Below are positions 36,082-59,200 of a DNA stretch of 64,000 bases, in pieces. The notes under the pieces were generated by a model. It worked only from the letters and a program-made list of their open reading frames with translations. It was not told the origin of the DNA and made no database searches. The translations under genes were made by a program, and so were the position numbers. Every line of letters starts with the position of its first letter. Position 1 is the first letter of the stretch. Origin of the DNA: Bacteroidota bacterium (GTDB lineage: Bacteria; Bacteroidota; Bacteroidia; 2-12-FULL-35-15); the NCBI GenBank assembly GCA_947476185.1, contig CANJPX010000010.1:574-64573 (forward strand), given 5' to 3'.

Positions 36082-37224
36082 ATGAAAAAAAATTTATTGC
36101 TTGCATTGATGCTTTTTGCAAGGCAACTATTCGCACAAACAGATAGTTTAAATTCTGACTCATTGCTGCTTCTGCAGATCCAGAACGACATGAAGGAAGC
36201 TGCTGCTCCACCAACAATTCAACAACGAATTGCGGCTTCCGCAAATCCTGATATAAGCGCAATTGGCGATTTTAGGGGATATTACAGAAGTTATGGCAAA
36301 CATAATTTTGATGCTGCACTTCACGAAACCGAATTCTCTTTTCAATCTGTGGTCGATCCATATGCCCGTGCCGATTTCTTTTATTCTGTTGCCGAAGATG
36401 AAAAAACAGGGGAATTTTCAGGTGAGATCGAAGAAGGATATTTGACAACTCTATCTCTGCCGGGGCATTTACAATTAAAAGCAGGAAGATTCAAAGAACA
36501 AATGGGGCGCATAAATCCTGTTCATGCGCATGCACTTCCATTCATTGATATGCCCGATGCGTATGTAAATTTTTTCGGAGAAGATGGATTCAAAGGAGAT
36601 GGTCTTTCCTTAAGTTGGTTATTACCGAATCATTCATTTTTCCAGGAACTAACTGTGGAAGCAACTAATGTAAGCGAGGGTCCGAGTTTTGAAAGAAGTG
36701 CCGGAAATAATTATTTATACAATGCACATCTAAAAAATTTCTGGGACCTTACGGATAATGCAACTTTGGAATTAGGCTTGTCAGGAATGACAGGAGAAAA
36801 TCTGATGAAAAAAATCACCAATATCGGAGCGATCGATCTTACCTATAAATGGAAACCTATCCGTTATAACACCTATAAATCTGTCACATTTCAGAATGAG
36901 TTGTATTATAGTCAGGCAGCACTCGACAGCTCAACAGTTAACGCAATTGGATTTTACTCTTTGCTGAATGTGCAAATTGCAAAACGAAGTTTCCTTGCAG
37001 GAAGATTTGATTATTCAAACAATCCTTACTCAGCAAAATTTGTGCAAGAGTCAGGCTCTTTAACGCTAGGATTTCTGGCAACAGAATTTCAAAAAATTGA
37101 GATAGAAGGGAAATACACAACGATGAATACGGCACTTGCAGAAAATGACAATCAGAAAAAATTTGTCTCAGCATATCTGAGATGGATCTTCGTCATTGGA
37201 TCTCATGGAGCACATACTTATTAA
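36082..37224 (+). CDS. hypothetical secreted outer-membrane (porin-like) beta-rich protein upstream of znuA
   Basis: 380 aa. Signal peptide (..LFAQ). Alternating amphipathic beta-strand pattern with aromatic girdles. No specific family recognised. Confidence 0.4.
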   Translation: MKKNLLLALMLFARQLFAQTDSLNSDSLLLLQIQNDMKEAAAPPTIQQRIAASANPDISAIGDFRGYYRSYGKHNFDAALHETEFSFQSVVDPYARADFFYSVAEDEKTGEFSGEIEEGYLTTLSLPGHLQLKAGRFKEQMGRINPVHAHALPFIDMPDAYVNFFGEDGFKGDGLSLSWLLPNHSFFQELTVEATNVSEGPSFERSAGNNYLYNAHLKNFWDLTDNATLELGLSGMTGENLMKKITNIGAIDLTYKWKPIRYNTYKSVTFQNELYYSQAALDSSTVNAIGFYSLLNVQIAKRSFLAGRFDYSNNPYSAKFVQESGSLTLGFLATEFQKIEIEGKYTTMNTALAENDNQKKFVSAYLRWIFVIGSHGAHTY

Positions 37225-37258
37225 AAAAATAAAAACAATTTTAAAAAAACAAAAAAAA

Positions 37259-38209
37259 ATGAAATCAATTATTAAAAAATACCTGAACTTTAAAAATAAA
37301 GTAAAGCGTAATTCAAAGATCATTACCTCTATATGTATCCTATTTTCAATTAATTCGGCCATTGCGGGTACGATTCATGTTGTCACTACAACACAGGATA
37401 CCAAAAGCATTGCAGAAATAATTGGAGGAACGAAAGTGGATCTTTTTGCCATCGCAACAGGTTATCAGAATCCGCATTTTGTGGATCCAAAACCAAGTTA
37501 TATCATCAAACTTTCGAATGCTGATCTGTATGTAACACTTGGTCTTGATCTGGAAGCAGGATGGTCACCATCGTTGCTGACAAGTTCTAAAAATAAAAAA
37601 ATCCAAAAAGGCAGTGATGGTTATGTTGATGCTTCTGTTGGCGTAAATCTGATGCAAGTACCTTCTTCCATAAATCGTGCGGAAGGTGATATCCATGTAT
37701 TTGGAAACCCTCATTATTGGCTCGATCCATTGAATGGAAAAATTATTGCAAGAAATATTTGTAATGGACTTGAAAAAATATCTCCTGAGAATAAAGATTA
37801 TTTCGAAGCGAATCTAAAAACATTTGACGCACAGATAGATGCAAAAATAAAAGTGTGGACCGCTGCAATGGAGGGGTTTAAAGGAGCGAAAATAATCGCA
37901 TATCACAATGAATGGTGTTACTTCGAAAACCGTTTCGGTTTAAAGATCGTTGATTTTATGGAACCAAAACCGGGCATTCCTCCCTCACCATCACAACTGG
38001 TGAAGATCATAAAAGAGGTAAAAGAAAATAGCATCAAAGTGATCATTACATCGCCTTACTTTACAACCTCTTCATCTGATGTTGTTTCAAAACAGACCGG
38101 TTCAAAAACTGTGGTGTTGGCAACTTCTGTCGGAGCTTTTGATGGAATAAAAAACTATTTCGACTTGTTCGACTACAACATAAAACTATTAAGCGCATCA
38201 CTAAAATAA
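37259..38209 (+). CDS. metal ABC transporter substrate-binding protein (ZnuA/TroA cluster-9 family)
   Basis: About 316 aa from the MKSIIKK start. Signal peptide. Typical cluster A-I SBP organisation (..AEGDIHVFGNPHYWLDP.., ..KIIAYHNEWCYF..). Confidence 0.75.
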   Translation: MKSIIKKYLNFKNKVKRNSKIITSICILFSINSAIAGTIHVVTTTQDTKSIAEIIGGTKVDLFAIATGYQNPHFVDPKPSYIIKLSNADLYVTLGLDLEAGWSPSLLTSSKNKKIQKGSDGYVDASVGVNLMQVPSSINRAEGDIHVFGNPHYWLDPLNGKIIARNICNGLEKISPENKDYFEANLKTFDAQIDAKIKVWTAAMEGFKGAKIIAYHNEWCYFENRFGLKIVDFMEPKPGIPPSPSQLVKIIKEVKENSIKVIITSPYFTTSSSDVVSKQTGSKTVVLATSVGAFDGIKNYFDLFDYNIKLLSASLK

Positions 38210-38251
38210 TCAATACAAATTTTTATTTATTAATTTCTAATTCTATTTATT

Positions 38252-39100
38252 ATGTTCGACATGTTTCAATTGGATTTTATGCTTCTTGCATTTGTGATAA
38301 GCATTATAATAGGTATCTTACTGTCTTATCTTGGCGTGCATGTAGTGGGAAGAGGAATTGTTTTTGTGGATCTTGCACTCGGTCAGATCTCCTCACTTGG
38401 CGTTGCATTTTCTGATTATGTAGGTTATGGCAAAACGATCATCCCGATATTATTTGCTTTGTTCGGAGCATTGCTGATGTCGCTCATCAACATTAAAGAC
38501 AAGCGGCTGAAGCTTGAAGCAGTAATTGGAATTATTTATGCTGTTTCATCTGCAGTAACAGTAATGTTAATCTCCAAAACCCCACATGGTGATTCGGACA
38601 TTCAAGAGGTACTTTTTGGAAATATCCTTTCTATTGATTGGACACAAATAACGATCATCGGAAGTATTTTCGGAGCAATTGCCTTGTTTCATCTTATCTT
38701 TTACAAGAAGTTCTTTTTATTGACCGAATGTTTTGAAACAGAAAACAGCCAACTGGGACAAACAGTCTTTAAGAAAAAAGGCGAATTCAGTTTCTGGAAT
38801 TTCATGTTCTATTTATCAATCGGATTAGCAATTGTATTTGCGGTGAGGGTGAGCGGAGTAATTCCGGTTTTTGCCTTTCTGATAATTCCGGCAGTTGCAT
38901 CGATCATGCTTTTCAAAAATAATCTTGGTCTTGTAATTTCTTCTATACTGATAAGTATCATAGGTGCATTTTTCGGATTGAACGTTTCCTATCATTTTGA
39001 TTTCCCTGCTGGCTCATCATTAGTAGCAGTATTAGGGGGTATTTTCTTCATGATCTCCTTGTTCTATATATTCAAAAGCATGATGAAAAAGAAAAACTGA
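38252..39100 (+). CDS. metal ABC transporter permease (ZnuB/ABC-3 family)
   Basis: 282 aa with 8-9 TM segments, ABC-3 type. Directly follows the SBP gene. No ATPase gene adjacent. Confidence 0.75.
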   Translation: MFDMFQLDFMLLAFVISIIIGILLSYLGVHVVGRGIVFVDLALGQISSLGVAFSDYVGYGKTIIPILFALFGALLMSLINIKDKRLKLEAVIGIIYAVSSAVTVMLISKTPHGDSDIQEVLFGNILSIDWTQITIIGSIFGAIALFHLIFYKKFFLLTECFETENSQLGQTVFKKKGEFSFWNFMFYLSIGLAIVFAVRVSGVIPVFAFLIIPAVASIMLFKNNLGLVISSILISIIGAFFGLNVSYHFDFPAGSSLVAVLGGIFFMISLFYIFKSMMKKKN

Positions 39101-39216
39101 ATTCTAACCGATCATCAAATAAGGAGTATGTGAATAAGTTTCAAATTCGGATACAAATGTTTCAATTTGGCTTTTTCAATAATTAAATATACATTTGTTA
39201 GTATAAAAGTTTAAAA

Positions 39217-39606
39217 TTGAAAAAGTCACTGATCTTATTTTTGACATTCATTTACCTGGTTGTAGCATCAGGCGTGGCTTTTAATTTCCATTACTGCCGA
39301 GGTAAGATCAGCAGCATCTCTCTTGCATTTGTCAGCAACCACGATAATTGTTGTGGAAAAAAGAAAATGACAAAGAAAAACTGTTGTAAAAACAAAACCT
39401 CAGTTTTAAAAATAAACGACAATCAACATTCTTCAACAAATATCAAAGCGCCTTCAACAATCATTACGGCTATTGACGCTAGTTTTACACAGATCAACTT
39501 CAGTGTTGCATCTATCATTGAAGCGAAAACCATTTCAAGAATTCACGCCCCCCCTGATATTTATCAGGATTCGATATACCTGCAATATCGCGTATTGATC
39601 ATTTAG
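39217..39606 (+). CDS. hypothetical small Cys-rich membrane-anchored/secreted protein
   Basis: 129 aa. Hydrophobic N-terminus then HYCRGK..NHDNCCGKKKMTKKNCCKNK. No family recognised. Confidence 0.35.
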   Translation: MKKSLILFLTFIYLVVASGVAFNFHYCRGKISSISLAFVSNHDNCCGKKKMTKKNCCKNKTSVLKINDNQHSSTNIKAPSTIITAIDASFTQINFSVASIIEAKTISRIHAPPDIYQDSIYLQYRVLII

Positions 39607-39763
39607 AATTTTCCTTTTTGTCATTTCCATACTAATTTTCAGTAATGGGAATTTTATGCTTTTGCATATGCCTATGACAACAATTTCTGTATTTCTATTT
39701 CGGGAATAATTACAAACTTATTTTTACAATTTCAATATTTATTAATCATAAAATACAACGCTA

Positions 39764-39997
39764 ATGAAAACTAAAATCATTCTATCAAGTTTCGTACTTT
39801 CAACAATAATTATTTTTTCTTGTAACGGTGAAGCAAAGAAAGATGCCACCGCAACTGAAAATGCGAGTCAGCCTGTAGCAGCTTTTGCTTATACCTGTCC
39901 GATGCATCCTGATGTAAAAAGCGATAAACCGGCACAATGCCCTGATTGTGGAATGGATCTGGAAAAAGTAGAAAAGACAGATAGTATCAGCCATTAG
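39764..39997 (+). CDS. small lipoprotein consisting of a heavy-metal-binding domain (HMBD; YxCPMHP...CPxCGMxL motif)
   Basis: 77 aa. Lipobox ..IIFSC. Motif AYTCPMHPDVKSDKPAQCPDCGMDLEKV matches the HMBD found at N-termini of CusB-like and other metal efflux proteins. Confidence 0.65.
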   Translation: MKTKIILSSFVLSTIIIFSCNGEAKKDATATENASQPVAAFAYTCPMHPDVKSDKPAQCPDCGMDLEKVEKTDSISH

Positions 39998-40099
39998 ATC
40001 CTATAAAATAAATTGTTTTTATGATTCGTCAAATAAAATATTTTAATCATGTTATATAGATTACTATTTTTTCTTCTTCCATTAGGATATCTATTTTCA

Positions 40100-40107
40100 C
40101 CCCCCCC
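40100..40107. repeat. poly-C homopolymer (8 C) at the junction between a signal-peptide ORF and a cytochrome c domain ORF
   Basis: Direct reading of ttttcaCCCCCCCCactt. Frames 40049..40234 and 40150..40470 differ by one position. Confidence 0.9.
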
Positions 40108-40149
40108 ACTTACTTTGCTAAGAGGTTTGAAAAAGAACAGAAAGATACC

Positions 40150-40470
40150 TTGGTTACAATTTCACCAATTGAAAAAATTAAAAAAGGAAAATTATTATTT
40201 GAACAAAACTGTTTGTTGTGTCACGGTGCTTTAGGAAAAGGAGATGGATATGCCGGCATTTATCTAAATCCAAGACCCTTTGACATCAGTTCCGAAAAGG
40301 TACAAATACAAAGTGATTCCACCCTTTTTTTTAAAATCACTCTTGGAAAAGCACCTATGCCAACTTTCAAAGCACTGCCTTTTGAATCAAGATTATATCT
40401 ATTAATGTATGTCAGAGAACTTGGGAAAAATAATAATAAACAGACCGCTAAAAATGATTCGAAGAACTAA
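40150..40470 (+). CDS. class I c-type cytochrome domain (CxxCH); apparently frameshifted from its signal peptide at the poly-C tract
   Basis: ..KLLFEQNCLLCHGALGKGDGYAGIYLNPRPFD.. heme-binding CLLCH. As it stands the ORF starts at a TTG with no export signal. The upstream frame-2 ORF (40049..) encodes MLYRLLFFLLPLGYLFSPPP. Confidence 0.6.
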   Translation: MVTISPIEKIKKGKLLFEQNCLLCHGALGKGDGYAGIYLNPRPFDISSEKVQIQSDSTLFFKITLGKAPMPTFKALPFESRLYLLMYVRELGKNNNKQTAKNDSKN

Positions 40471-41674
40471 CTACTGCATATGGATAATTATTTTTTCTTT
40501 TTTAATAGTTGAAAAAGGAGAAGCAATAAATAATGACACCATTTCAAAAAAAGAAAACTTTAAATTCTCCCGAATTGTATTTTCCGGAAACGGTTATTGT
40601 GGAGTCGATGTACATTTAAATAAGTCTCTAAAAGACAGTACGGGAATGGAATCTACATCCCTTCCAATTGGTTTGGCTCCAATCATATTATGGAAGCTCA
40701 CACCTCAGTTATTTATTGAAAGTGAATTCGATTTTATGATGGATCATGGAATGTTAAGTGGAGAAATTGGATATGCAAATTTATGCTACTCCACGAATAA
40801 ATTGGGCACGATACAAATAGGAAAATTTCTTAGTCCGTTCGGAATTTATTCAGAACGCTATCACCCATTTTGGATAAATAATGCTCCAAATACACCGTTG
40901 GGATTCGCACATGAAGGATCTTCACCTGAATCAGAGTTAGGTGTTTGTTATAAAGTAGGTTCCAAACATTTTACATATGCTATGTATGCATCTTTGAGTC
41001 CAAAAATAGATGGAGGGAGTGAAAATGTAAAAAATGCAGGTAAAATTATTTTCCACATTGATCTGAGAGAAAAGTTCAATAAAAAAATTGGTTTGGGCGC
41101 TCGAGTAGGAATTTTGCCATTTAAAAACCCTTCTATAGAACTGGGACTTTCCTATAAATGGATGCAATTGGAAGTTGGCGAACATTACGATGGAACAGCG
41201 GTCACACACACGCATCCATCTGGCGAGCAATCAAAATATTACATTGGGAATATGTATGCTGTTGATCTTACGATTGAAAAAATCCTTGCCCGATTGAAAG
41301 GTAAGATTGATATAAAAGCACAAGTAAATTACACAGATGTTGGAACTAATAATTTTATAAAAACTAGTCCAAGTGGAATTACTGAAATTGATTATTCTTA
41401 TTCAAATAAGAGTGAAATTGGATTTGCAATGCTATCCTTTAAACCAATATTAGTTGACAATTACATCCTAAAAAGATCAGGAATATTTGTACGTGGAGGG
41501 ACCTTACAATTGCCTATTGGTTCTTTATGGTACGAGACAACCTATGAAATCACAGCTGGATTAAATTATTCATTTAATTGGCAAAATATCCTGAAAATAG
41601 GATACCAGCAGATTTCAACTGCAAAAAAAGGTTATACAAATAATATATTGTTACAATGGGCTGTAGGTTTTTAA
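40454..41674 (+). CDS. hypothetical outer-membrane beta-barrel protein
   Basis: About 406 aa from MIRRTNYCIWIIIFSFLIV. Amphipathic beta-strand pattern. C-terminal ..LLQWAVGF ends in Phe (OM barrel signature). Confidence 0.45.
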   Translation: MIRRTNYCIWIIIFSFLIVEKGEAINNDTISKKENFKFSRIVFSGNGYCGVDVHLNKSLKDSTGMESTSLPIGLAPIILWKLTPQLFIESEFDFMMDHGMLSGEIGYANLCYSTNKLGTIQIGKFLSPFGIYSERYHPFWINNAPNTPLGFAHEGSSPESELGVCYKVGSKHFTYAMYASLSPKIDGGSENVKNAGKIIFHIDLREKFNKKIGLGARVGILPFKNPSIELGLSYKWMQLEVGEHYDGTAVTHTHPSGEQSKYYIGNMYAVDLTIEKILARLKGKIDIKAQVNYTDVGTNNFIKTSPSGITEIDYSYSNKSEIGFAMLSFKPILVDNYILKRSGIFVRGGTLQLPIGSLWYETTYEITAGLNYSFNWQNILKIGYQQISTAKKGYTNNILLQWAVGF

Positions 41675-41688
41675 ATAGAAAATTCGTA

Positions 41689-41940
41689 ATGCTAACAATT
41701 TGCTTTGCGCTTGCATTTATTATTCATAGTTGCAAAACAAAAAATGAGCTAATAATAGAAAAAAGCGGAGCTCAACTTTGGGGAGAAAATTGTGGCCGCT
41801 GTCATAACACACCTGACCCAACAACATATACAGATGAAAAATGGGAAACTGTTGCCATGCATATGAAAGTCAGGGCAAATATATCTTCCAAAGAAATCGT
41901 TTTGATCAAGGAATTTTTGAAATCAGCAAATGGCGATTAA
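41689..41940 (+). CDS. small lipoprotein with a single CxxCH heme-binding motif
   Basis: 83 aa from MLTICFALAFIIHSC (lipobox). ..LWGENCGRCHNTPDP.. Ends 11 nt before the TonB-dependent receptor gene. Confidence 0.55.
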   Translation: MLTICFALAFIIHSCKTKNELIIEKSGAQLWGENCGRCHNTPDPTTYTDEKWETVAMHMKVRANISSKEIVLIKEFLKSANGD

Positions 41941-41950
41941 AAATTAAATA

Positions 41951-44185
41951 ATGAAAAAACTATATTATAAATATATCATCCTTCTTGGAATCCTGTTCAT
42001 TACTATTCTGAGCACAAATGCTCAAAATATTGCAGGAACTGTATTTGGAATAAATGATAAAGGGTTAAATGAAATTCTTCCAGGTGCAAATGTATATTGG
42101 AAAGGAACATCCATTGGCACTTCAACAGATATTAATGGCAAATTTCAAGTTCCAAACCCTGAAGCGGTTCCCTCCAAATTAATTATCAGCATGATTGGTT
42201 TTATGAGCGACACAATGACAATTGAAAAACCAGATCAATTGAATATAAAAGTTGTATTAAAAAGCAGCATCACATTAAAAACTGTCAATATTGAAGCGAA
42301 ACAAAATTCCACAATGTATTCAACTTTTAACCCAATCAATTCTGAAGTAATTAGTGGAAAGGAATTACTTAAAGCTGCCTGCTGCAACCTTTCGGAAAGT
42401 TTCAGCACGAATGCCTCTGTTGATGTCGCATTTACCGATGCAGTCTCTGGAGCAAAAAAAATTCAAATGCTTGGACTTGATGGTGTGTATACACAAGTGT
42501 TATCTGAGAATATGCCGATGTTAAGAGGATTGTCAGCGGCTTACGGTTTAAATTATATTCCAGGCACATGGATTGACAACATCTTAGTTACCAAAGGAAC
42601 AGGATCTGTAGTGAATGGATATGAAAGTATATCAGGACAAATCAATCTTGAGTTTTTAAAACCACAAAATCAAAAAAAACGTTTGTTTATTAATTTGTAT
42701 GCAAATGAAAAAGGGCGGGATGAAATAAATGTCCATTTGGCAAAAAAATTTAATACAAAATGGACAACACTTCTATTTACCCATTTGAGTGATATGAGCA
42801 TGAAGAATGATGCTAATAAAGATGGATTTTTAGATATGCCCTTAACTCGTCAATACAATATTTTTAACCGATGGGATTATCATAATCAGAAAAATTTCGA
42901 ACAGCAGTTTGGAATAAAAGCACTTTATGAAATGCGTCAAGGAGGACAAACAAATTTCAATTACAACAGAGATCATGATAGCACAAGTGCTTATGGTATA
43001 GGTATCAATACTACTGCTTTAGAATATTTTTCAAAAACAGGATTCATGTTTCCATCAAGACCTTTAAAGAGCGTTGGTATTCAAACTTCAGGAAAATGGC
43101 AACAACAAGAAATGTATTTTGGTATAAGAAAATACAATGGAGAACAAAAGAATTTTTATACAAATATCATTTATGCAAACTTCATCAACAATACAGATCA
43201 CAAATATAAATTGGGTGCAAGCTATATGTTAGATGATTATTCAGAAAAGTACAACGACTCATCTTTTACCAGAACAGAAAGTGTTCCCGGAGTATTTGCC
43301 GAATATACTTATACACACCCTGATAATTTTTCTATCGTTATCGGCGGCCGCGCAGATTACCATAACATGTATGGAATACAATATACACCACGTTTGCATT
43401 TACGTTTCAATGCAACAAAAACAACTACTTTTAGGCTATCAGGAGGCAGAGGCTTCAGAACATCAAACATTTTTGTGGAAAACCAATCTGTATTCGCAAG
43501 TTCAAGAAAGGTCGTAATCGCAGAAAAGCTTAAGCCTGAAATTGCTTGGAACTATGGCGTTTCGGCTAATCAAAAATTTACTTTATTCGATAATGAAGCT
43601 TCTGTAAATGTTGATTTTTTCAGAACCGATTTTCAGAATCAAGTAATCGTTGATATTGATCAAAGCGTAAACAAAGTGGTGTTTTATAATTTAAATGGAA
43701 GATCTTATTCCAATAGTTTGCAAATTGATTGTGGTTATTCTCCCATAAAAATGTTTGACATAAAGGTTGCCTATAAATGGTACGATGTTAAAACAACATA
43801 TAATTATGAATTACTCGACAAGCCCTATATTCCAAAGCATCGCGTGATGTTCAATATGGCATATTCAACATATATGGATATTTGGAAATTTGATTTTACA
43901 ACAAATTGGCTAGGAGAAAGCAGATTGCCAAGTACAGAATTATCTCCTATTGAATATAAATTACCAAAACATTCAAACCCTTACTTTTTACTAAATGCGC
44001 AGATTACAAAAAAATTTAAAACATTTGAACTTTACTTGGGTTGCGAAAACATTTTGAATTACACGCAGAGAAATCCAATCATTGCCTCAGAAAACCCATT
44101 TGGCAGCAACTTCGATGCTTCAATGATCTATGCACCTATTGAAGGTCGAAATATTTATGGGGGATTCAGAATGAGTATCAAATAA
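41951..44185 (+). CDS. TonB-dependent outer-membrane receptor with N-terminal carboxypeptidase-regulatory-like domain
   Basis: 744 aa. Signal peptide, CarbopepD_reg-like start (..NIAGTVFGINDKGLNEILPGANVYW..), plug, 22-strand barrel length. Contains a CC pair (..LLKAACCNLSESF..). Confidence 0.85.
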   Translation: MKKLYYKYIILLGILFITILSTNAQNIAGTVFGINDKGLNEILPGANVYWKGTSIGTSTDINGKFQVPNPEAVPSKLIISMIGFMSDTMTIEKPDQLNIKVVLKSSITLKTVNIEAKQNSTMYSTFNPINSEVISGKELLKAACCNLSESFSTNASVDVAFTDAVSGAKKIQMLGLDGVYTQVLSENMPMLRGLSAAYGLNYIPGTWIDNILVTKGTGSVVNGYESISGQINLEFLKPQNQKKRLFINLYANEKGRDEINVHLAKKFNTKWTTLLFTHLSDMSMKNDANKDGFLDMPLTRQYNIFNRWDYHNQKNFEQQFGIKALYEMRQGGQTNFNYNRDHDSTSAYGIGINTTALEYFSKTGFMFPSRPLKSVGIQTSGKWQQQEMYFGIRKYNGEQKNFYTNIIYANFINNTDHKYKLGASYMLDDYSEKYNDSSFTRTESVPGVFAEYTYTHPDNFSIVIGGRADYHNMYGIQYTPRLHLRFNATKTTTFRLSGGRGFRTSNIFVENQSVFASSRKVVIAEKLKPEIAWNYGVSANQKFTLFDNEASVNVDFFRTDFQNQVIVDIDQSVNKVVFYNLNGRSYSNSLQIDCGYSPIKMFDIKVAYKWYDVKTTYNYELLDKPYIPKHRVMFNMAYSTYMDIWKFDFTTNWLGESRLPSTELSPIEYKLPKHSNPYFLLNAQITKKFKTFELYLGCENILNYTQRNPIIASENPFGSNFDASMIYAPIEGRNIYGGFRMSIK

Positions 44186-44220
44186 TAATAAACACAATTA
44201 AAAATCAAAAACTAAAAAAA

Positions 44221-44580
44221 ATGAAAAGAAAACTATTTACGGGAATCATAGCCGTGCTTTTGCTATTTTCTTCAAACGTAAAAGCACAAGATTTAAAAAG
44301 TGCGGAAATAAAAATTAAGACTTCTGCAACTTGCGACATGTGCAAAAAAACAATAGAAAGTGCTCTCGCATTCGAAAAAGGCGTAAAAAAATCAACGTTG
44401 GATGTACCTACAAAAATAGTTACAGTTGTATACAACCCAAAGAAAACAACGCCAGAAAAAATTCGACTGGCAATTTCCAATGCAGGATATGAAGCTGACA
44501 GCTTAAAAGCTAATCCTAAAGCATGGAGCAACTTAGAGGATTGTTGCAAAAAAGGCACCACTTGTGAAGAAAAAAAATAA
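44221..44580 (+). CDS. periplasmic heavy-metal-associated (HMA) domain protein (copper-chaperone-like)
   Basis: 119 aa. Signal peptide. HMA fold with metal-binding ..TSATCDMCKKTIESAL.. (CxxC). C-terminal ..EDCCKKGTTCEEKK Cys cluster. Confidence 0.75.
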   Translation: MKRKLFTGIIAVLLLFSSNVKAQDLKSAEIKIKTSATCDMCKKTIESALAFEKGVKKSTLDVPTKIVTVVYNPKKTTPEKIRLAISNAGYEADSLKANPKAWSNLEDCCKKGTTCEEKK

Positions 44581-44785
44581 TTGTTGAAGTTCTCTATTTT
44601 CAATAACGATTGAATACTAATAATTGTAGCATTTTAGAGCAATTTTAAAAATAATTTTAGTAAATTTGATTCAATGAATACGTGGATATTCAAATAAATG
44701 GGATTAAGAATAACAAAACCCTAACAAAATATCAAAATCACTAGAAACTCTTTTAAAATAAAATAATCGCAAATAAATAAAACCA

Positions 44786-45559
44786 ATGAAAAAAATAATA
44801 CTAATCACTCTTGCCGGCATTATCTCTAGTTTTGGCTTTGCACAAACGACAGCAACAGACTTCACAGTAAATGATTGTTCCGGAACTTCACATCATCTTT
44901 TCGCTGAATTGGATGCAGGTAAAGTTATTGTAATTGCTTTTGTAATGCCATGCACTTCTTGTATCGCACCATCTGTTTCTGCTTATTCGGAAGTACAAAA
45001 CTATGCAAGCACTTATCCTGGACGTGTTTTATTTTATTTATCCGATGACCTGGGAACTGCTACCTGTTCATCAATAACAAACTGGGGAACAACAAATGGA
45101 ATAACCGGAGTTCCAGTGTTTTGCAATACCGCTGTCAAACAAGCAGATTATGGTGCAGCAGCAATGCCTAAAATTGTAGTTTTAGGTGGTCCTACTCATA
45201 CTGTTCTTTTTTCGCAAGACAATGGATTGAATGTAACAAATTTCAATGCTGCTATTAATTTAGGATTAGTTGCAGGCATCTTTGAAAATTCAAAATCCGA
45301 CTTCGAATTGTCAGTTTTCCCTAATCCTTCAAAGACAGATAAAACCACTATAAACTACACTCTGAAAGAAGGTTCTGATGTCACCGTTGACATTTATAAT
45401 ACAATTGGTGAAAAAGTTAAGACCATCGCGCTTGAAAAGCAAGCTGCAGGAAAACACGAATCAATATTAGATTTTGAATCATTGACCAATGGAATTTATT
45501 TCATAAAGTTGAATGCGGGAGAATCATCTCAAGTACTCAAATTCAGTGTTTCACATTAA
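44786..45559 (+). CDS. thioredoxin-fold (TlpA/redoxin-like, CxxC) protein with T9SS type A C-terminal sorting domain
   Basis: 257 aa. Signal peptide. ..GKVIVIAFVMPCTSCIAPS.. redoxin-type active site. C-terminal ..LSVFPNPSKTDKTTINYTL..GIYFIKLNAG.. T9SS C-terminal domain. Confidence 0.65.
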   Translation: MKKIILITLAGIISSFGFAQTTATDFTVNDCSGTSHHLFAELDAGKVIVIAFVMPCTSCIAPSVSAYSEVQNYASTYPGRVLFYLSDDLGTATCSSITNWGTTNGITGVPVFCNTAVKQADYGAAAMPKIVVLGGPTHTVLFSQDNGLNVTNFNAAINLGLVAGIFENSKSDFELSVFPNPSKTDKTTINYTLKEGSDVTVDIYNTIGEKVKTIALEKQAAGKHESILDFESLTNGIYFIKLNAGESSQVLKFSVSH

Positions 45560-45584
45560 GATTTTATTTTGATTGTTATTTTAC

Positions 45585-45626
45585 AACCTGATATTATCTT
45601 TTAATAATATCAGGTTGTTTTTTTTA
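45585..45626 (+). terminator. rho-independent terminator after the first thioredoxin-T9SS gene
   Basis: Perfect hairpin AACCTGATATTAT-CTTTTA-ATAATATCAGGTT followed by GTTTTTTTTAATT. Confidence 0.7.
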
Positions 45627-45646
45627 ATTATTAAATTTTAAATTCT

Positions 45647-46756
45647 ATGCGTTCTCTTATTTTTATTGCAACGACAATTCTATTCGCAAATAATATTTAT
45701 TCGCAAGGATGTTGTTCAGGTGGCAGTGGCAGTCCAATTGCAGGAGGAGCTTCACAGGGAGTCCTTCAAGACAGACAGGTTGAAGTTGCAGCAAATTATC
45801 AATACATCAACACGAATAAATTTAAATCCGGTGACAAAGATACGGCAGCTTTATTCGATGGATTCACAAGTAACTACATGTATCTTCGATTAGCATATGG
45901 CCTGACAAAAAACCTGACCATGTCTGTTGAATCAGGATATTATTTAAATAAAACACAAATCGGATTAAACAGAGTCGATACATTTAGTTCAGCCGGAATT
46001 GGCGACCTGATTTTATTTCCAAGATATGATGTATTAAACAGAACATCAGAAAAAAAACGCACAGAAATCACCTTGGGTATCGGACTAAAAATTCCATTAG
46101 GCATGTATGACGACTCAACTCTTTTTTACACAAACCCATATACAAGAAAACAGCTTTTCAGACCGTCACCTCCTTCAGTACAACCCTCTACAGGAGCGAA
46201 TGATTTTATTTTTTACGGCTTCTTTTACAGAGGTTATCCTGAAAAAAAATTCAGAGTATTCATGAATACATTATACGTTCGCAAAGGCTGGAGTCCAATT
46301 GGAGCGAAATTCGGGGATTACGCAAGTGTCGGTTTATTTGCCGGTCAAACCTTCTTTAAAAAATTAGGAGTTACCATACAGGTAAAAGGAGAATGGATCG
46401 GAAAAATGAAAGCCAGCCAAAATGCAGATGATATGATGAATATGTATAATGTGGATATCGTTTCAACAGGCAGCCGAAAAATATTATTTGTGCCTCAGCT
46501 TAGTTATAGCTATAACAGCTTCTCTATTTATGCCTTGACAGAAATTCCGCTTTACCAATATGTCAACAAAGTACAAGTAGCATCGCAAGTTCAGGCAACT
46601 GTGGGGATTTCATATCGATTTAATGCGTATAAAAAAATAGCCGTTAAAAGTGATTCGCAAAGTCTTTATGTTTGTCCGATGGGCTGTGTTGGAAGCGAAA
46701 GCAATGAACCTGGAAAATGCAAAGAATGCGGAATGGAATTAATAAAAAGAAAATAA
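45647..46756 (+). CDS. outer-membrane beta-barrel protein with N-terminal Cys-rich stretch and C-terminal heavy-metal-binding domain (HMBD) extension
   Basis: 369 aa. Signal peptide then QGCCSGGSGSP. Barrel body ending ..VGISYRF. C-terminal tail ..YVCPMGCVGSESNEPGKCKECGMELIKRK is the same YxCPM...CxxCGMxL motif as the 39764 lipoprotein. Confidence 0.55.
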   Translation: MRSLIFIATTILFANNIYSQGCCSGGSGSPIAGGASQGVLQDRQVEVAANYQYINTNKFKSGDKDTAALFDGFTSNYMYLRLAYGLTKNLTMSVESGYYLNKTQIGLNRVDTFSSAGIGDLILFPRYDVLNRTSEKKRTEITLGIGLKIPLGMYDDSTLFYTNPYTRKQLFRPSPPSVQPSTGANDFIFYGFFYRGYPEKKFRVFMNTLYVRKGWSPIGAKFGDYASVGLFAGQTFFKKLGVTIQVKGEWIGKMKASQNADDMMNMYNVDIVSTGSRKILFVPQLSYSYNSFSIYALTEIPLYQYVNKVQVASQVQATVGISYRFNAYKKIAVKSDSQSLYVCPMGCVGSESNEPGKCKECGMELIKRK

Positions 46757-46767
46757 AAAATAATCGA

Positions 46768-47544
46768 ATGAAAAAATTATTGACACTTATTTCTGTATTC
46801 TTATTTGTTTCAGTGTCTTTATACGGGCAAACAGCAATTGACTGGACCAAACTAGATTGTTCAGGAATCAGCCATAATCTTTATACGTATTTAAATAATG
46901 AGGATGTTGTAATTATGGAATTTGCTATGGGTTGTAGCAGTTGTACCAATGCCGGAGCACGACTACTTAGTATAAAAGACAAATATGCAATTTCTAATCC
47001 TGGGAAAGTAAACGTATTCTATATGGATTACTGGCCTGGAAATACCTGTGCAACTGTTGTTTTACCTACAACTACGCCTTATGCCTTTGATGCTGTATTT
47101 GATCATTCACTTGCAGAAAAAGATAATTATTTTGCTAGCTCCTCTCCAATGCCCGGTATTGCAATTGCTGCGGGAAGTTCACATCAGATAATTTATCAGG
47201 TAAATAGTTTTGTTGATGCTGATACTACATTAATTGAACAAGCAATCACTGCATTTTTCGCAACAGCAAACATTAAAGAAAACCTTTTCGAAAATACAAT
47301 AACACTTTCTCCAAATCCCTCCACTGGAGATGTAATAATTAATTTTACAAATACAGAAACAGAAAACATTAATATTTCACTTTTTAATTTAAATGGTCAA
47401 TTGATTAAAGGACTCTTTAATGAGAAAGTATCAGTTGGAGATTTCAAAAAAATAATTGATATCCGATCCTATCCTAAAGGCTTATATTACATTAACATTT
47501 CCAATTCAAAATACTCAATTAACAAAAAGATAGTTGTAAATTAA
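46768..47544 (+). CDS. thioredoxin-fold (CxxC) protein with T9SS type A C-terminal sorting domain, paralogue of 44786..45559
   Basis: Signal peptide MKKLLTLISVFLFVSVSLYGQ. ..DVVIMEFAMGCSSCTNAG.. C-terminal ..TLSPNPSTGDVIINF..GLYYINIS.. T9SS C-terminal domain. Collinear similarity with the 44786 protein (..DCSG.SH.L...L.....V.I..F.M.C.SC..). Confidence 0.65.
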   Translation: MKKLLTLISVFLFVSVSLYGQTAIDWTKLDCSGISHNLYTYLNNEDVVIMEFAMGCSSCTNAGARLLSIKDKYAISNPGKVNVFYMDYWPGNTCATVVLPTTTPYAFDAVFDHSLAEKDNYFASSSPMPGIAIAAGSSHQIIYQVNSFVDADTTLIEQAITAFFATANIKENLFENTITLSPNPSTGDVIINFTNTETENINISLFNLNGQLIKGLFNEKVSVGDFKKIIDIRSYPKGLYYINISNSKYSINKKIVVN

Positions 47545-47580
47545 GTCCCTTATCAGATTTCTTCTGATTATGTTGTACAT

Positions 47581-47970
47581 TTGTTTCATAACGAAATACT
47601 ATTGAAATCATTTATTGCACTATTAATTGCTTTTGCCATTATTTTCCAATCAGCCGGAAAGCTAATTATTATTGTGCATTACTCCTTAAACAAAGAATAC
47701 ATTTCAAAAAACTTATGTGAAAACAGAGCAAAGCCAAAAATGCATTGCAACGGTAAATGTCATTTAAAAAAGGAATTACAAAAAGAAGACAAGAAAGATA
47801 ATTCTCCATCAAATAATTTAAAAGAAAAGTATGAAGTACAATTTTTCGAAAAATTTAAAAAAATAATAAATATCCTGCCTTTCAGCGAAAGAGAAAAAGC
47901 TACAACAACTTATTTGTTTCCATTCTCATCTGAGGACCTGAGCGCCATATTTCACCCACCACAATCATAA
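47581..47970 (+). CDS. hypothetical small membrane-anchored Cys/His-rich protein
   Basis: 129 aa. N-terminal TM segment then ..HYSLNKEYISKNLCENRAKPKMHCNGKCHLKK... Loosely similar layout to the 39217 protein. Confidence 0.3.
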   Translation: MFHNEILLKSFIALLIAFAIIFQSAGKLIIIVHYSLNKEYISKNLCENRAKPKMHCNGKCHLKKELQKEDKKDNSPSNNLKEKYEVQFFEKFKKIINILPFSEREKATTTYLFPFSSEDLSAIFHPPQS

Positions 47971-48165
47971 TTAACGATAAAATTTAATTTTCCGTGTTGC
48001 CTTTTTGCAGATGGCATAAACTATTAACATTTCTGTTGATGGATGTTTTTTTACATGCAATTATTTGGTTACGGGAAAAAGTTCACATTTTTAGAACTAC
48101 TTTTTAGAAAAACAAATCAATTATCGATTTGTTATATTTTTATTTATCTAATAATTATAAATATT

Positions 48166-48954
48166 ATGAAACCACATAAAATATTTTTCGCATTTTTTTT
48201 ATCAGTTACACTTCTTGCTTCATCTTGTAAAAAAGACAAAGATGAAGAAACGCCAACACCTTCAGTTCCCGCTGCCACATCTGGAAGCCTGGCACTTCAT
48301 TTTGAAAATATGGTGGGAGATAGTGCCTTGGTAATGAATACCGAATCATATGTAACTGCAAACAATGATACAATTACTGTTTCTGCATTTAAATATTATA
48401 TCAGCAACATTGTATTAACTAAAAGCGGTGGAGGAACATATGTTGAAAATGAGAGTTACCATTTAATTGATGCTTCTGACTTATTAACCGGTGAATTTAC
48501 TCTTCCAAATGTTCCTTTCGGGGATTACACAGGAATTACATTTATGATCGGTGTTGACAGTACACGGAATGTTTCAGGTGCACAAACCGGAGCATTAGAT
48601 CCTGTAAATGGAATGTACATGGGAATGGGTGCAGGTTATATCCAAGCAACCTTGGAAGGATTATCTCCACAGTCAACATCTGGAGGGCACATGTTCATGT
48701 ACCAAGTTGCTGGATTCCAAGGAATATACAACCCTCTTAAAACTATTTCTCCAACTTTTTCAGGTGGTATCGCCACTGTCACATCAAGTGTTATTCCAGA
48801 AATTCACTTCAAAACGAATTTATTAGAATGGTTCACAACGCCTAACAACATTAGCATTTCCGCTGTGAGTATGGTAATGTCTGTTAACTCAACAAGTCTA
48901 AATTTCGCTGACAACTATGCAGACATGATAAGCGTTGAACACATACACAATTAA
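48166..48954 (+). CDS. lipoprotein, possibly MbnP-like (copper-associated periplasmic protein family)
   Basis: From MKPHKIFFAFFLSVTLLASSC (lipobox). ..FKYYISNIVLTKSGGGTYVENESYHLIDAS.. and C-terminal ..NFADNYADMISVEHIHN resemble what I recall of Bacteroidota MbnP-family proteins. Tentative. Confidence 0.4.
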   Translation: MKPHKIFFAFFLSVTLLASSCKKDKDEETPTPSVPAATSGSLALHFENMVGDSALVMNTESYVTANNDTITVSAFKYYISNIVLTKSGGGTYVENESYHLIDASDLLTGEFTLPNVPFGDYTGITFMIGVDSTRNVSGAQTGALDPVNGMYMGMGAGYIQATLEGLSPQSTSGGHMFMYQVAGFQGIYNPLKTISPTFSGGIATVTSSVIPEIHFKTNLLEWFTTPNNISISAVSMVMSVNSTSLNFADNYADMISVEHIHN

Positions 48955-48961
48955 TAAATAT

Positions 48962-49021
48962 AGTATCATATAGTCGCTTCGTGGATCTTTCTATTACGGC
49001 TATATGATACTTTTATAATTT
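48962..49021 (+). terminator. rho-independent terminator after the MbnP-like gene
   Basis: 15-bp inverted repeat AGTATCATATAGTCG / CGGCTATATGATACT (1 mismatch) followed by TTTTATAATTT. Confidence 0.5.
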
Positions 49022-49161
49022 CTAAAAGGAGTCAATTGCAATTTGATAATCTGACTAATAATTTATAGGCATAAAAAATATTTTTATAAGAAAAAAACTA
49101 ACAAAAGAAATATCATTTTATATCAAGAAAAGAACCTTAACTTTAACTTAAATTAAAAAAA

Positions 49162-49545
49162 ATGAAACATTCATTTAGGTATTTAGCAATTCTTTATTTC
49201 GTTACTTTAATTGCAATGACTATCACGTCATGTAAAAAAGAAGGAACCGGTGGAAAATCTAGTGTAAGTGGAAGTGTAAAGCACCATTCCAGACTTATTC
49301 CCAACGCTATTGTTTACATAAAATATGGTGCAACAGAATTTCCGGGAACAGATATTAGTAAGTATGATGACCACGTAACTTCGGATGCGGATGCACATTA
49401 TGAATTCAAAGACCTGCGCAAAGGTGATTATTATTTGTATGGAGCTGGATACGACACGTATGGCCTTTTTAATGTTACCGGAGGCGTTGGTATAAAATTA
49501 AAATACAACAAGTCAATTACCATAGATGTTCCGGTAACGGAGTAA
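49162..49545 (+). CDS. hypothetical lipoprotein with beta-sandwich (carboxypeptidase-regulatory/transthyretin-like) features
   Basis: 127 aa. Lipobox ..MTITSC. ..GSVKHHSRLIPNAIVYIKYG.. pattern. Confidence 0.4.
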   Translation: MKHSFRYLAILYFVTLIAMTITSCKKEGTGGKSSVSGSVKHHSRLIPNAIVYIKYGATEFPGTDISKYDDHVTSDADAHYEFKDLRKGDYYLYGAGYDTYGLFNVTGGVGIKLKYNKSITIDVPVTE

Positions 49546-49645
49546 AAAAATTTGAAGCTCAAATCGATTTGACATCACGTTTTATTTTTTAAAGAACTAC
49601 GATTAACGAAAAACTTAACCATTCCGATTTTTATTATTTATTAAA

Positions 49646-51106
49646 ATGAAGCGTAAACAAAAAATACTATTTTTTATTCCATTAACAATTTTTATTGTTT
49701 GCTTCTTAACGACATGCACCAACGATAAAGGAATACCTGATTACAATCAATTTCCTGATGATGTCGGAAAAATAATTTTCACTAAATGTGCTACGCCCGG
49801 CTGTCACACAGATATAAGCAAAGGTGCAACAGGAGGTCTTTCACTGGAAAGTTGGGATAAAATGTTTGATGGAGGGAAAACCAGTGCCTGTGTTATCCCC
49901 TACAGAAATGACTACAGCACATTTTTTTCCTATATAAATACATATTCAGATCTAGGTGTAACACTTTTACCGGTTATGCCATACAATAAAAATCCTTTAA
50001 CGCGTGAGGAAGTTATACTATTAGGAAACTGGATCAATGCAGGGGCGCCCAGCAGAGATGGCACTATAAAATTTGCAGACGATCCTAATCGTAAAAAGTT
50101 TTATGTCACAAACCAAGGTTGTGATGTTGTAACTGTGTTTGATCAAAAAACACAATTACCAATGCGTTACATCAATGTAGGAAACTCCGCAGCTACGGAA
50201 TCTCCGCATGACATAAAAGTTTCACCTGATGGACAATATTGGTATGTTGTATTTTTACAAGGAAATTCAATCCAAAAATATAAAACGAGTGATGACACTT
50301 TTGTGGGTGAAGCTTTTTTAGGTGTAAAGAGTTGGAATTCTTTTACGATGACAAGTGATGGTTCTAAGGCCTATGTGGTTGACTGGAGCAGCAGTGGCGA
50401 TGTTGCAGTGGTAGACCTTAACACATTTGCTGTAACACATAATATTGGTTTTAATTATCCACATGGTTCTTGTCTTAATCCAACAGAAGATACTTTATAT
50501 GTAACGGAACAAAACAATAGCAGCAAAATGTATAAAGTTCCCGTAAATGATTTTTCTGCATTCTCAGAAATAAATTTATTTACAACACCGCCTCCCTCTT
50601 TTCTGAATTCACATCTTGTAGACTTTTCCCCTGATGGAACAGAATATTTTGTGACTTGTCAAGGAACATCAGAAGTCAGAGTTTTTCAACAAGGAACAGA
50701 TCAATTATTAGCGACAATACCGGTTGGAGGACTTCCTTCTGAAATGGCAATTTCAGATCTTCACAATTATTTATTTGTTACCTGTGAAGAGGATACACTT
50801 TCCTTTCCAGGCAAAAGAGGAAGCATCGCTGTAATCGACATTGCAAGTAATTCATTAATAAAAACAATTTATTCGGGCCATCAACCGCATGGAATTGATG
50901 TTGACGATGAAAAAAATCTGGTTTATATCGCCAACAGAAATAAAACGAATGATGGCCCGGCACCTCATCACACAAGCGTTTGCGGCGGCAGGAATGGGTA
51001 TGTTACTTTTATTGATATGAATAGTTTAGAATTGATTCAAGCGGGTGCCGGCGCAAAAAAAACCGAGGTTTCCGTGGATCCATATGAAGTAGCTGTCCGT
51101 CACTGA
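49646..51106 (+). CDS. lipoprotein with N-terminal mono-heme cytochrome c domain fused to a YVTN-type beta-propeller (cd1-like architecture)
   Basis: 486 aa. Lipobox ..FLTTC. ..IIFTKCATPGCHTD.. (CxxCH) and ..LTREEVILLGNWINAGAP cytochrome c C-terminal helix. Repeated propeller blades (FYVTNQG, AYVVDWSS, LYVTEQNN, YFVTCQG, LFVTCEED, VYIANRN). Confidence 0.7.
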   Translation: MKRKQKILFFIPLTIFIVCFLTTCTNDKGIPDYNQFPDDVGKIIFTKCATPGCHTDISKGATGGLSLESWDKMFDGGKTSACVIPYRNDYSTFFSYINTYSDLGVTLLPVMPYNKNPLTREEVILLGNWINAGAPSRDGTIKFADDPNRKKFYVTNQGCDVVTVFDQKTQLPMRYINVGNSAATESPHDIKVSPDGQYWYVVFLQGNSIQKYKTSDDTFVGEAFLGVKSWNSFTMTSDGSKAYVVDWSSSGDVAVVDLNTFAVTHNIGFNYPHGSCLNPTEDTLYVTEQNNSSKMYKVPVNDFSAFSEINLFTTPPPSFLNSHLVDFSPDGTEYFVTCQGTSEVRVFQQGTDQLLATIPVGGLPSEMAISDLHNYLFVTCEEDTLSFPGKRGSIAVIDIASNSLIKTIYSGHQPHGIDVDDEKNLVYIANRNKTNDGPAPHHTSVCGGRNGYVTFIDMNSLELIQAGAGAKKTEVSVDPYEVAVRH

Positions 51107-56234: not shown

Positions 56235-56279
56235 TATTTAATGATACTCAAACTGAAACGAATAAAAACGCTCCCTTGC

Positions 56280-59200
56280 ATGAAAAAAAAATTACATAAA
56301 ACAAGTTTTCGAAAAATTCTACAAATTTCAATTTCAAAAAAACTAATTGAAATTTTTTTAGGATTATTTCTGCTTGTATCAGGTCAAATATTCGGGCAAG
56401 GAAATAACCCATGTGCTGCAACCCCTTTGGCAACAAATGCAACTTGTATTGTTACAAATGGCACTACCGTGGGTGCAACTTATGCTAGCAATGCTGCAAA
56501 TGGAGGAAGCCCAACATGTGCCTCACCGGGAGCGCCAGATGTATGGTATAGTATTGTCGCTCCAGCTAGTGGAAGTATAACACTTACTATGTCAGGTGGA
56601 GGTATTACAGATGGAGGAATGGCATTATATAACGGCCCTTGTGGCGGCCCAACACAAATTGCCTGCAGTGATGACGCAATTGGTTTAATGCCTCAAATCG
56701 TTCAATCAGGTTTAACACCAGGTGCAACATACTATGTAAGGGTGTGGTCTTATTTTAGCGGCACAGGAACTTTTGGTATTTGTGATGTTGCAAATCCGGC
56801 CCCGCCTCCTCCTCCCGCAAATGACAATCCATGTGCAGCAACAGTTTTAACTCCAGGGGTGGCTTGTACATATACTGCAGGAACTACTTCAGGTGCAACA
56901 CAAACCTTAGCTGGTTGTGTTGGTACTGCCAATGATGATGTTTGGTATTCCTTCGTAGCGGCAGGAACTTCTCAAGTAATAACGGTAGCAGCATCGGCAG
57001 GTTTTGATCCTGTTGTTGAGGTATTCTCTGGAACGTGTGGCGGACTAACAGCTATGAGTTGTAATGACTTTGCATATTTGAGTGGATCTACTGGTGGCAG
57101 CACAATAGCGGGTCTAACAATAGGACAAACCTATTGGGTAAGAATTTATGATTACTTTTCAGGTGTTCCTGCAACTAGTACTTTTAATATTTGTATTACA
57201 ACTCCTCCTCCTCCTCCTCCTCCAGGACCGGGAGATGATTGTTCTCAGGCTATACCATTTTGTACAGGAACAACTTATACCTTCCCAAATAATACAGGGA
57301 TTGCATCTTTAGGAAGCGGTGGAACTTATGGTTGTTTATTATCCACTCCTAATCCCGTTTGGTATTTTATGCAAGCAGCTACTGCTGGAAATCTTAGTAT
57401 AGGGATCAACCAAGGTACAACTGCTGGTGCTGGAAATTTAGATCTTGACTATTGCTTATGGGGTCCATTTTCAAGTCAGGCAGCGGGTTGTGCAGGAATT
57501 TCAGCAGCAAATATTTTAAGTTGTAGTTATTCTATTGCTGCAACAGAAACAGCAAATATTCCAAACGCAATAGTAGGTCAATTTTATCTTTTATTACTAA
57601 CAAATTTCTCTAACTCTGCCGGGGTTATTCAATTCAGTCAGACACTAGGGCCGGGAAGTACAAACTGTGCAGTACTTTGCGGGATGTCAGCTTTAACAGC
57701 AGTTCCCGGAGCATGTGTCCCTGCTACTAACACATATTCCGTTACAGGATCTGTAACATTCGTTTACCCTCCTGCCACCGGAAATCTAGTGATCTCTAGC
57801 AGTTGTGGAGGAAGTGTTACTGTGCCAAGTGCTGGTCTGGCAAGTCCTTATAACTATACAATTTCTGGTATTACACCTACCGGTGGCCCCTGCACAATTA
57901 CTGCAGCCTTTACTGCTGATGCAACGTGCGCACTGAATCAAACATACACTGCACCTGCCCCCTGTACCTCATGTGTTGCAACGGCCACTAATACTGGGCC
58001 CTATTGCGCCGGAGCAACTATTCAACTGAATGCCACAGGTGGCGGAACATACAGTTGGAGCGGCCCTGGAGCTTTTACTTCAACCTTACAAAACCCTACC
58101 CGGCCAGCTTCTACAGTAGCCATGAGTGGCACCTATACAGTTACTGTTACAAATGGAGCTTCCACTTGTACAGCAATAACTGCTGTTACAGTAAACCCTA
58201 TACCAGTAATTACAGCACCGGCCAATATAGCTGTTTGTGCTGGCACAGCGATTGCCGCAACAAATTTTGTAAGTATACCAGCCGGGGCAACATATACCTG
58301 GTCTAATTCAAATGTGGCAATTGGCTTAACAGCTTCAGGTATAGGAAATGTCCCGGGATTCACGGGAACAAATGCTACTACGGCCGCAATTACAGGTACA
58401 ATTACGGTAACACCTACTTTGTCAGGTTGTGTTGGTTTACCAATTATCTATACAATCACCATAAATCCACAACCTACATCAGCCTTCACTCAAACAGCGA
58501 ATACTTGTTTGACTGGAAATTCGTTTACTTTTACAAGTGCCCCAGTTATACCTTTAGGTTATACACAATCATGGACTTTTGGTGGTGGTGGTGCCAGTCC
58601 GGCAACTTCAATAACTAGTCCTGTTACTGTTACTTATACCACTCCAGGCACATATACAATTACACATATTGTAACAGGACCGGGTGCTTGTACATCAACC
58701 ACAACATCAACGGTTACCATTTATCCAATGCCAATAGTAACGGTCAATTCAGTTACTATTTGTGCAGGACAAACTACTGTGTTAACGGCGGGCGGTGCAT
58801 CAACATATACCTGGAGCGCTGGAGCAACATCAGGAGGCGGAGCAACTGCAACAGCCTCTCCATTAACAACGACGACTTATACCGTAACTGGAACAAGCAC
58901 TGACGGGTGTACAGCAACAGCAATAGCAACAGTTACAGTTACTCCTCTTCCAATAGTAACTGTCAATTCTCCTACCATTTGTTTTGGAGCTACAGCTACA
59001 CTTAATGCTGCCGGCGGGACTACTTACCTTTGGTCAACTGGTGCAATAATAAACCCAATCACTGTTACCCCTGCAGGAACAACAACTTATACTGTAACAG
59101 GAACAACAGCAGCTTGCACGAACTCGGCAGTTTCAACTGTAACCGTTACGCCATTAACGACAGTTACGGCAGTGGCTAACCTCACATTTTGTCCTGGTGC

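Follow-up and report, generated by a model that had tools for sequence, protein, structure and literature searches.

A one-base difference in a poly-C run splits the reading frame of a small cytochrome c gene in an uncultured freshwater Bacteroidota

The poly-G/C contingency loci of Campylobacter jejuni, Neisseria, Haemophilus and Helicobacter, as portrayed in PMC3025981 and PMC5084427, occur in sets within a genome, have conserved tracts of variable length, and mostly affect surface structures or restriction-modification. Poly-C tracts are likewise found in ordinary, non-surface genes, as reports on the glpK homopolymer of Mycobacterium tuberculosis (bioRxiv 10.1101/717272) and the homopolymeric tracts of Bordetella pertussis (PMC1891110) describe. 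The locus presented here lies in the window, the whole stretch of 64,000 nucleotides that was analysed, and its host is an uncultured freshwater Bacteroidota. It shares with the contingency loci a run of 8-9 nt near the 5′ end of an open reading frame in an AT-rich genome. A change of ±1 nt toggles the gene between an intact and a truncated form, and both lengths are probably natural. The locus is a case of a homopolymer-length frameshift for which the in-frame allele is documented elsewhere in the organism. Events of this sort are known, and no new mechanism is involved.

Window positions 40090-40115 read TCTATTTTCACCCCCCCCACTTACTT, which is TCTATTTTCA-CCCCCCCC-ACTTACTT across the same positions with the eight Cs in the middle. 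An earlier note on this DNA had placed a C8 tract between an N-terminal export segment in frame 2 and a haem-binding CxxCH domain in frame 1 whose first start is a TTG. The tract is confirmed at 40100-40107, and so are the two reading frames (Table 1). Frame 1 is closed upstream by a TAG at 40057-40059, and no ATG, GTG or TTG occurs from there to 40150. The addition of one C gives a fused product, and the proposal that nine Cs restore a single protein stands, except that its length is 140 aa and not 141. The TTG-started product had been described as lacking an export signal, and its best 12-aa Kyte-Doolittle window is indeed just 0.74, against 2.32 for the fused N-terminus (LLFFLLPLGYLF) and 2.7-3.5 for the orthologues. 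This assessment is one of hydropathy only, and the N-terminal segment is a putative Sec signal. A frame-1 start at the ATT at 40060 (MTIFSSSIRISIF) was rejected, with a hydropathy of 1.27 that is far below that of the frame-2 N-terminus and no counterpart among the orthologues. A mini-ORF at 40021-40059 (MIRQIKYFNHVI*) lacks conservation: the sister-lineage locus L001 has AGG in place of the ATG.

The C8 tract is the longest G/C run of the window, which has 36.7% GC. Next in length come a C7 (39548-39554) and then a single C6 and a single G6. The statement that G/C homopolymers are nearly absent is roughly right, with the correction that the C7 sits 550 bp upstream of the C8. A C8 or G8 is present in 23 of 100 dinucleotide-preserving shuffles of the window. 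The run by itself is statistically unremarkable, and the tract is notable for its location and not for its existence. It is more than a chance feature because it falls at the exact frame break of a gene that is unbroken in orthologues, and because its length varies between otherwise identical independent assemblies.

Table 1. Coordinates of the cytochrome c gene, its parts, and the surrounding genes in the window
Feature	Position	Strand	Basis or remark
Small exported class I monohaem cytochrome c gene, 140 aa with C9, split by a 1-nt shortfall	40049..40470	+	ORFs, Pfam, orthologue alignment, intact P0001/L001
Export signal or anchor at the N-terminus, MLYRLLFFLLPLGYLFS in frame 2	40049..40099	+	Hydropathy, orthologue alignment; putative Sec role
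C8 homopolymer, frameshift site	40100..40107	+	Codons 18-20, Pro-Pro-Pro in the C9 allele
Frame-2 ORF, ATG start, 61 aa, MLYRLLFFLLPLGYLFSPPPLTLL...	40049..40234	+	ORF listing
TAG at which frame 2 ends in the C8 allele, after 61 codons	40232..40234	+	ORF listing
Frame-1 ORF, TTG start, 106 aa, contains CLLCH	40150..40470	+	ORF listing
TTG, earliest possible frame-1 start; 106-aa product without hydrophobic N-terminus	40150..40152	+	ORFs, hydropathy
CLLCH haem-attachment motif, frame 1	40210..40224	+	C55, C58 and H59 invariant in orthologue alignment
Met104 of GKAPMP, probable sixth haem ligand	40357..40359	+	Nearly invariant in orthologue alignment
406-aa protein, no family match; outer-membrane label without direct evidence	40454..41674	+	ATG overlaps cytochrome end by 17 nt
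94-aa CxxCH protein (CGRCH), third cassette gene	41656..41940	+	ORFs, synteny
TonB-dependent receptor, fourth cassette gene	41951..44185	+	PF00593, PF07715, PF13715; synteny
77-aa heavy-metal-binding-domain (HMBD) protein, directly upstream of cytochrome	39764..39997	+	PF19335, E = 2.5e-13
HYC_CC_PP family protein, PP motif encoded in the C7 run	39217..39606	+	NF047658
Metal-acquisition island (putative)	36082-51106		Gene content
ZnuA-like gene	37196-38209		Upstream of cytochrome
ABC-3 transporter gene	38252-39100		Upstream of cytochrome
369-aa protein with C-terminal HMBD	45647-46756		Downstream of cassette
MbnP	48043-48954		Downstream of cassette
486-aa beta-propeller protein	49646-51106		Island

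The fused 140-aa product matches the Pfam family PF00034 (Cytochrom_C) with 24.0 bits at a cut-off of 21.3. With PF13442 it scores 25.2 bits, slightly below the cut-off of 27, and its orthologues are annotated with both families. In addition to the CxxCH motif and the profile match, the product has the distal methionine of class I c-type cytochromes; its role as haem ligand is presumed from class I cytochromes c generally. In a PDB profile search the best solved relative is 6h5l_B, a 'conserved hypothetical cytochrome protein' (E = 2.2e-14), and the matches are cytochromes c552 and cytochrome c subunits of bc1 complexes.

Relatives were sought among 5.8 billion proteins, and ten were returned. 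P0001 and the L001 protein are intact counterparts that are 99% identical to the window cytochrome c, while eight orthologues (P0002-P0009) of 132-153 aa, mostly 133, have 53-61% identity. All orthologues have a hydrophobic N-terminus of the form M-x-Y/F-R/K-x-L (MxYRxL) that aligns with the frame-2 N-terminus of the window, and all run in frame from it into KKGK-LYEKNC-x-x-CHG. Orthologues that start internally had been named beforehand as the case that would speak against a joint gene; the comparison found none, and all N-termini are in frame. Because every orthologue has the in-frame hydrophobic N-terminus, the two ORFs belong to one gene and not two. The claim that they are the halves of one exported cytochrome c is borne out both by these orthologues and by two natural C9 alleles (L022 and L023). 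Export signal and domain are in separate frames in the C8 allele, whereas the C9 allele and all orthologues have them in one. Haem is attached to c-type cytochromes after export, in the Ccm and the system II maturation pathways alike. Since haem attachment follows export, the split form is unable to give a holo-cytochrome, and the C8 allele would be without function.

The source of the C9 alleles is a pair of independent public assemblies, found via neighbouring window proteins, of the organism that the window comes from. L022 (Logan SRR6787038) matches the window without a difference (100%) for 1611 bp (38497-40107) and continues with C9 and then AC. L023 (ENA ERZ27263733, contig k141_730489) also has C9 and is 99.7% identical, with one SNP at 40000 in addition to the extra C. 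Both encode the intact 140-aa protein with a Ser-Pro-Pro-Pro-Thr junction. L023 and L024, which are from different ENA assemblies, both begin at 39368, and L024 stops at 39994, just before the C/T SNP at 40000. This shared start, together with the end of L024 near the SNP, suggests that strain micro-diversity in lake populations breaks the assemblies.

The sister lineage L001 (MAG LacPavin_0920_WC57_MAG_35_7) has 94.2% DNA identity to the window. Its run is interrupted (CCCCCCTCC), the junction reads Ser-Pro-Pro-Ser, the gene is intact, and the product is on record as cytochrome c (MCX6295574.1). The Logan contig L009, with cytochrome DNA that is 97% identical to the window, likewise has CCCCCCTCC. 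Over the 4.3 kb compared between L001 and the window, the tract is the sole frame-breaking indel; the remaining gaps lie between genes, or in the linker part of the HMBD gene, where their net effect keeps the frame. In six more distant loci (L002, L003, L004, L010-L012) the cytochrome gene has no G/C run of at least 5 nt. The interruption in L001 and the absence from more distant orthologues indicate that the tract is young and lineage-specific, as judged from the alleles compared. C8 itself is known from a single assembly, and its 106-aa product occurs on two contigs (NCBI and ENA; 74,072 bp) that are probably one record mirrored. A scan of JGI metagenomes for further tract alleles gave distant orthologues only and no close relative, and a look-up with the 406-aa gene gave L020 only, which begins at 40336, 3′ of the tract. 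Exact look-ups with the TonB receptor, the 106-aa product and the HYC_CC_PP protein brought in no further sequence.

P0002 and P0009 have a serine at the corresponding alignment position, a weak hint that TCC is ancestral. Starting from C6TC2, either order of the two lengths (first C9 and then C8, or first C8 and then C9) takes two steps, and the SNP at 40000 favours neither. The competing paths are a TCC to CCC change with a later step from C9 to C8, and deletion of the T with a later step from C8 to C9.

The cytochrome c gene is the first gene of a conserved cassette. The order of cytochrome c, 406-aa protein and 94-aa CxxCH protein is kept in seven loci at 49-78% identity, with the TonB-dependent receptor coming next in the closer loci. 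The 406-aa protein is always the next gene after the cytochrome in orthologous loci. It belongs to a family of 405-421 aa (window 40454-41674; L002-L004, L010-L013) that always lies between small cytochromes and before a TonB receptor, and searches of this family against Pfam and NCBIfam gave no match. The gene overlaps at 40454/40470 and 41656/41674 suggest an operon, in which a stop in the first gene might also reduce expression of the genes downstream.

The surrounding genes look like a metal (perhaps copper) acquisition island. In addition to the genes of Table 1, two T9SS-tailed proteins are present in its downstream part, and no di-haem MbnH partner was identified within 36082-51106. The C7 run of the HYC_CC_PP gene reads the same in four independent assemblies (L017, L022, L023, L024); L001 has no C7 there. 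Relatives of the HMBD protein occur in L025 (3001-4226) and L026, at 64-74% identity, where they follow a DUF8199 protein and precede an RND heavy-metal efflux pump (ACR_tran). These different contexts suggest that the small HMBD gene moves between uptake-like and efflux-like metal loci. L025 and L026 had been considered as contigs reaching the tract and were rejected, as the HMBD gene ahead of the efflux pump marks a different locus. At the far end of the window (56235-64000, + strand), an ORF with 2,588 codons or more continues past the last letter without a stop, and for that reason it does not figure in the ORF tables. It has a GC content of 0.41-0.46, against about 0.35 elsewhere. T, A, G and V abound in its translation, which also shows repeated modules, and it probably encodes a giant repetitive surface protein, to judge by its composition.

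The explanation preferred here, with moderate confidence, is a genuine slipped-strand -1 allele (OFF, or null) at an accidental and recently created mutational hot spot, and not an evolved switch. The lineage-specific unbroken C run (CCC CCC CCC, Pro-Pro-Pro) would join the export signal to the mature domain, and a 9-nt G/C homopolymer is prone to slipped-strand mispairing at replication, of which the window would carry the -1 product, C8. In this allele, translation from the ATG at 40049 would depart from the cytochrome frame after codon 20 and end at the TAG at 40232. The haem domain would be made solely from the internal TTG, lacking an export signal, and no holo-cytochrome would form. The C9 of other populations of the same organism would be the ON state, and the change would be reversible in principle. 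That C8 is real in the source DNA and arose by slippage is inferred from the company it keeps. Across 9,186 bp of independent contigs (L017-L024) compared with the window, the differences are one SNP and the tract only, and the C7, the T8 and two A8 runs agree throughout. Elsewhere in the window the genes are long and uninterrupted, although it contains 34 A/T runs of 8-9 nt. These unbroken genes and agreeing homopolymers point to an assembly free of systematic homopolymer errors. The otherwise intact reading frame and the 97% DNA identity to L009 point to a frameshift of very recent date. From work on contingency loci, the mutation rate of a 9-nt G/C run should exceed that of single bases by orders of magnitude, and a length difference between lineages that are alike elsewhere is what such a run would produce.

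Three options had been left standing, namely a sequencing error, a pseudogene and a phase switch, and the evidence narrows this choice, in that the switch and a generally error-prone assembly are both disfavoured. A miscount confined to this one tract, in which the gene of the source organism is truly intact with C9 and one C was lost in sequencing or assembly, is rather unlikely but is the rival with most in its favour. Homopolymer length is a classic indel error on several platforms, C9 is seen in two of the three independent observations of the lineage, and the cytochrome gene is undamaged apart from the tract. The C9 contigs end 3 and 23 nt past the tract, and L020 begins 4 nt after a T8 at 40325-40332; such contig ends beside homopolymers show that homopolymers disturb these assemblies, possibly as a technical effect. 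The ends beside the tract were also considered as a sign of mixed reads, which was rejected as ambiguous with L020 starting in the same way after the T8. Against a miscount, the 9.2 kb common to the independent assemblies contains no further indel, and no second split gene turns up in the 64 kb, although it offers 34 A/T runs of 8 nt or more as well as a C7. Short-read assemblies, moreover, rarely get the consensus of a 9-mer wrong. The idea that C8 is the functional form, with the full-length protein made by -1 ribosomal frameshifting on C_CCC_CCA or by transcriptional slippage, is highly improbable. The formally slippery C_CCC_CCA is present, and a -1 shift on CCC CCA would yield the exact C9 product, S-P-P-P-T-Y-F. 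However, programmed shifts are normally conserved among orthologues, and here the orthologues and the same-lineage C9 alleles encode the protein in one frame. A frameshift-stimulating RNA structure was sought in the 83 nt 3′ of the tract, and none beyond shuffled controls was found (MFE -7.9 kcal/mol, z = +0.58; 149 of 200 shuffles fold as well).

It is also improbable, in the analysts' estimate, that the C tract is kept by selection as a high-frequency reversible ON/OFF switch of cytochrome c, possibly with control of the downstream outer-membrane protein, cytochrome and TonB-receptor genes through translational coupling. The tract does have the classical position of a switch, near the start of the ORF (codons 18-20), with ±1 toggling the frame, and the two lengths seen correspond to ON (C9, in frame) and OFF (C8, out of frame). 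The tract length differs between the window and L022 (100%) and L023 (99.7%), which may be a polymorphism or a sequencing error in one assembly. Long G/C runs are rare in this AT-rich genome, CCC is the rarest proline codon (11.5%) yet occurs three times in succession here, and the cassette is tightly packed, with the next gene's start overlapping the cytochrome stop by 17 nt. In contrast, the tract is not conserved, being interrupted at 94% identity in the sister lineage and replaced by sequence free of G/C runs of 5 nt or more in the six farther loci. Nor does it belong to a genomic set: the 64 kb has no second G/C run as long as 8 nt, and the C7 close by keeps its length. Of the shuffled sequences, 23% contain a C8 or G8, and a periplasmic electron carrier is an atypical phase-variable target. 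A working switch in a free-living freshwater Bacteroidota, in which C9/C8 slippage toggles cytochrome c and, with translational coupling lost, lowers the downstream genes of a copper or metal uptake cassette, is doubtful; if true, it would give a standing mix of receptor-ON and receptor-OFF cells, e.g. against phage or metal toxicity.

Whichever of the two leading explanations holds, slippage in nature to an 'off' form or a miscounted base, the event is an ordinary one. The 106-aa 'cytochrome c' on record is a truncated call; the real gene encodes 140 aa from 40049, and its annotation should carry a flag for a frameshift at the homopolymer. If C8 is real, the locus is a small natural example of how one T-to-C change creates a hypermutable run that then disables a gene. 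The gene affected would encode an electron carrier and stand first in a conserved, uncharacterised cytochrome/TonB-receptor cassette for metal uptake in an uncultured lake bacterium, and allele frequencies over lake samples could then reveal when the cassette is dispensable.

The intact allele resembles the class I monohaem c-type cytochromes (c552/c55x-like) in its CxxCH motif, the methionine of GKAPMP, the domain of about 90 aa, and the N-terminal export segment. It differs in that it lies, outside any respiratory operon, in a cassette with a putative outer-membrane protein, a second small cytochrome and a TonB-dependent receptor, near HMBD, HYC_CC_PP and MbnP genes. The C8 allele resembles homopolymer-length assembly errors, as a 1-base difference confined to the longest G/C run splits an otherwise perfect gene and other assemblies show the in-frame length, but no other homopolymer is affected in the window or in the 9.2 kb cross-checked. 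Unlike the contingency loci, the 64 kb has a single tract, which relatives either lack or have in interrupted form, and which lies in the gene of a periplasmic cytochrome c. For the tracts of M. tuberculosis glpK and B. pertussis, variation was demonstrated in cultured clonal isolates and tied to a phenotype, whereas the present one is seen only as a difference between metagenome assemblies. What the locus has in common with them is a poly-C run in an ordinary, non-surface gene, in which the gain or loss of one C would give revertible null alleles that vary between near-identical genomes.
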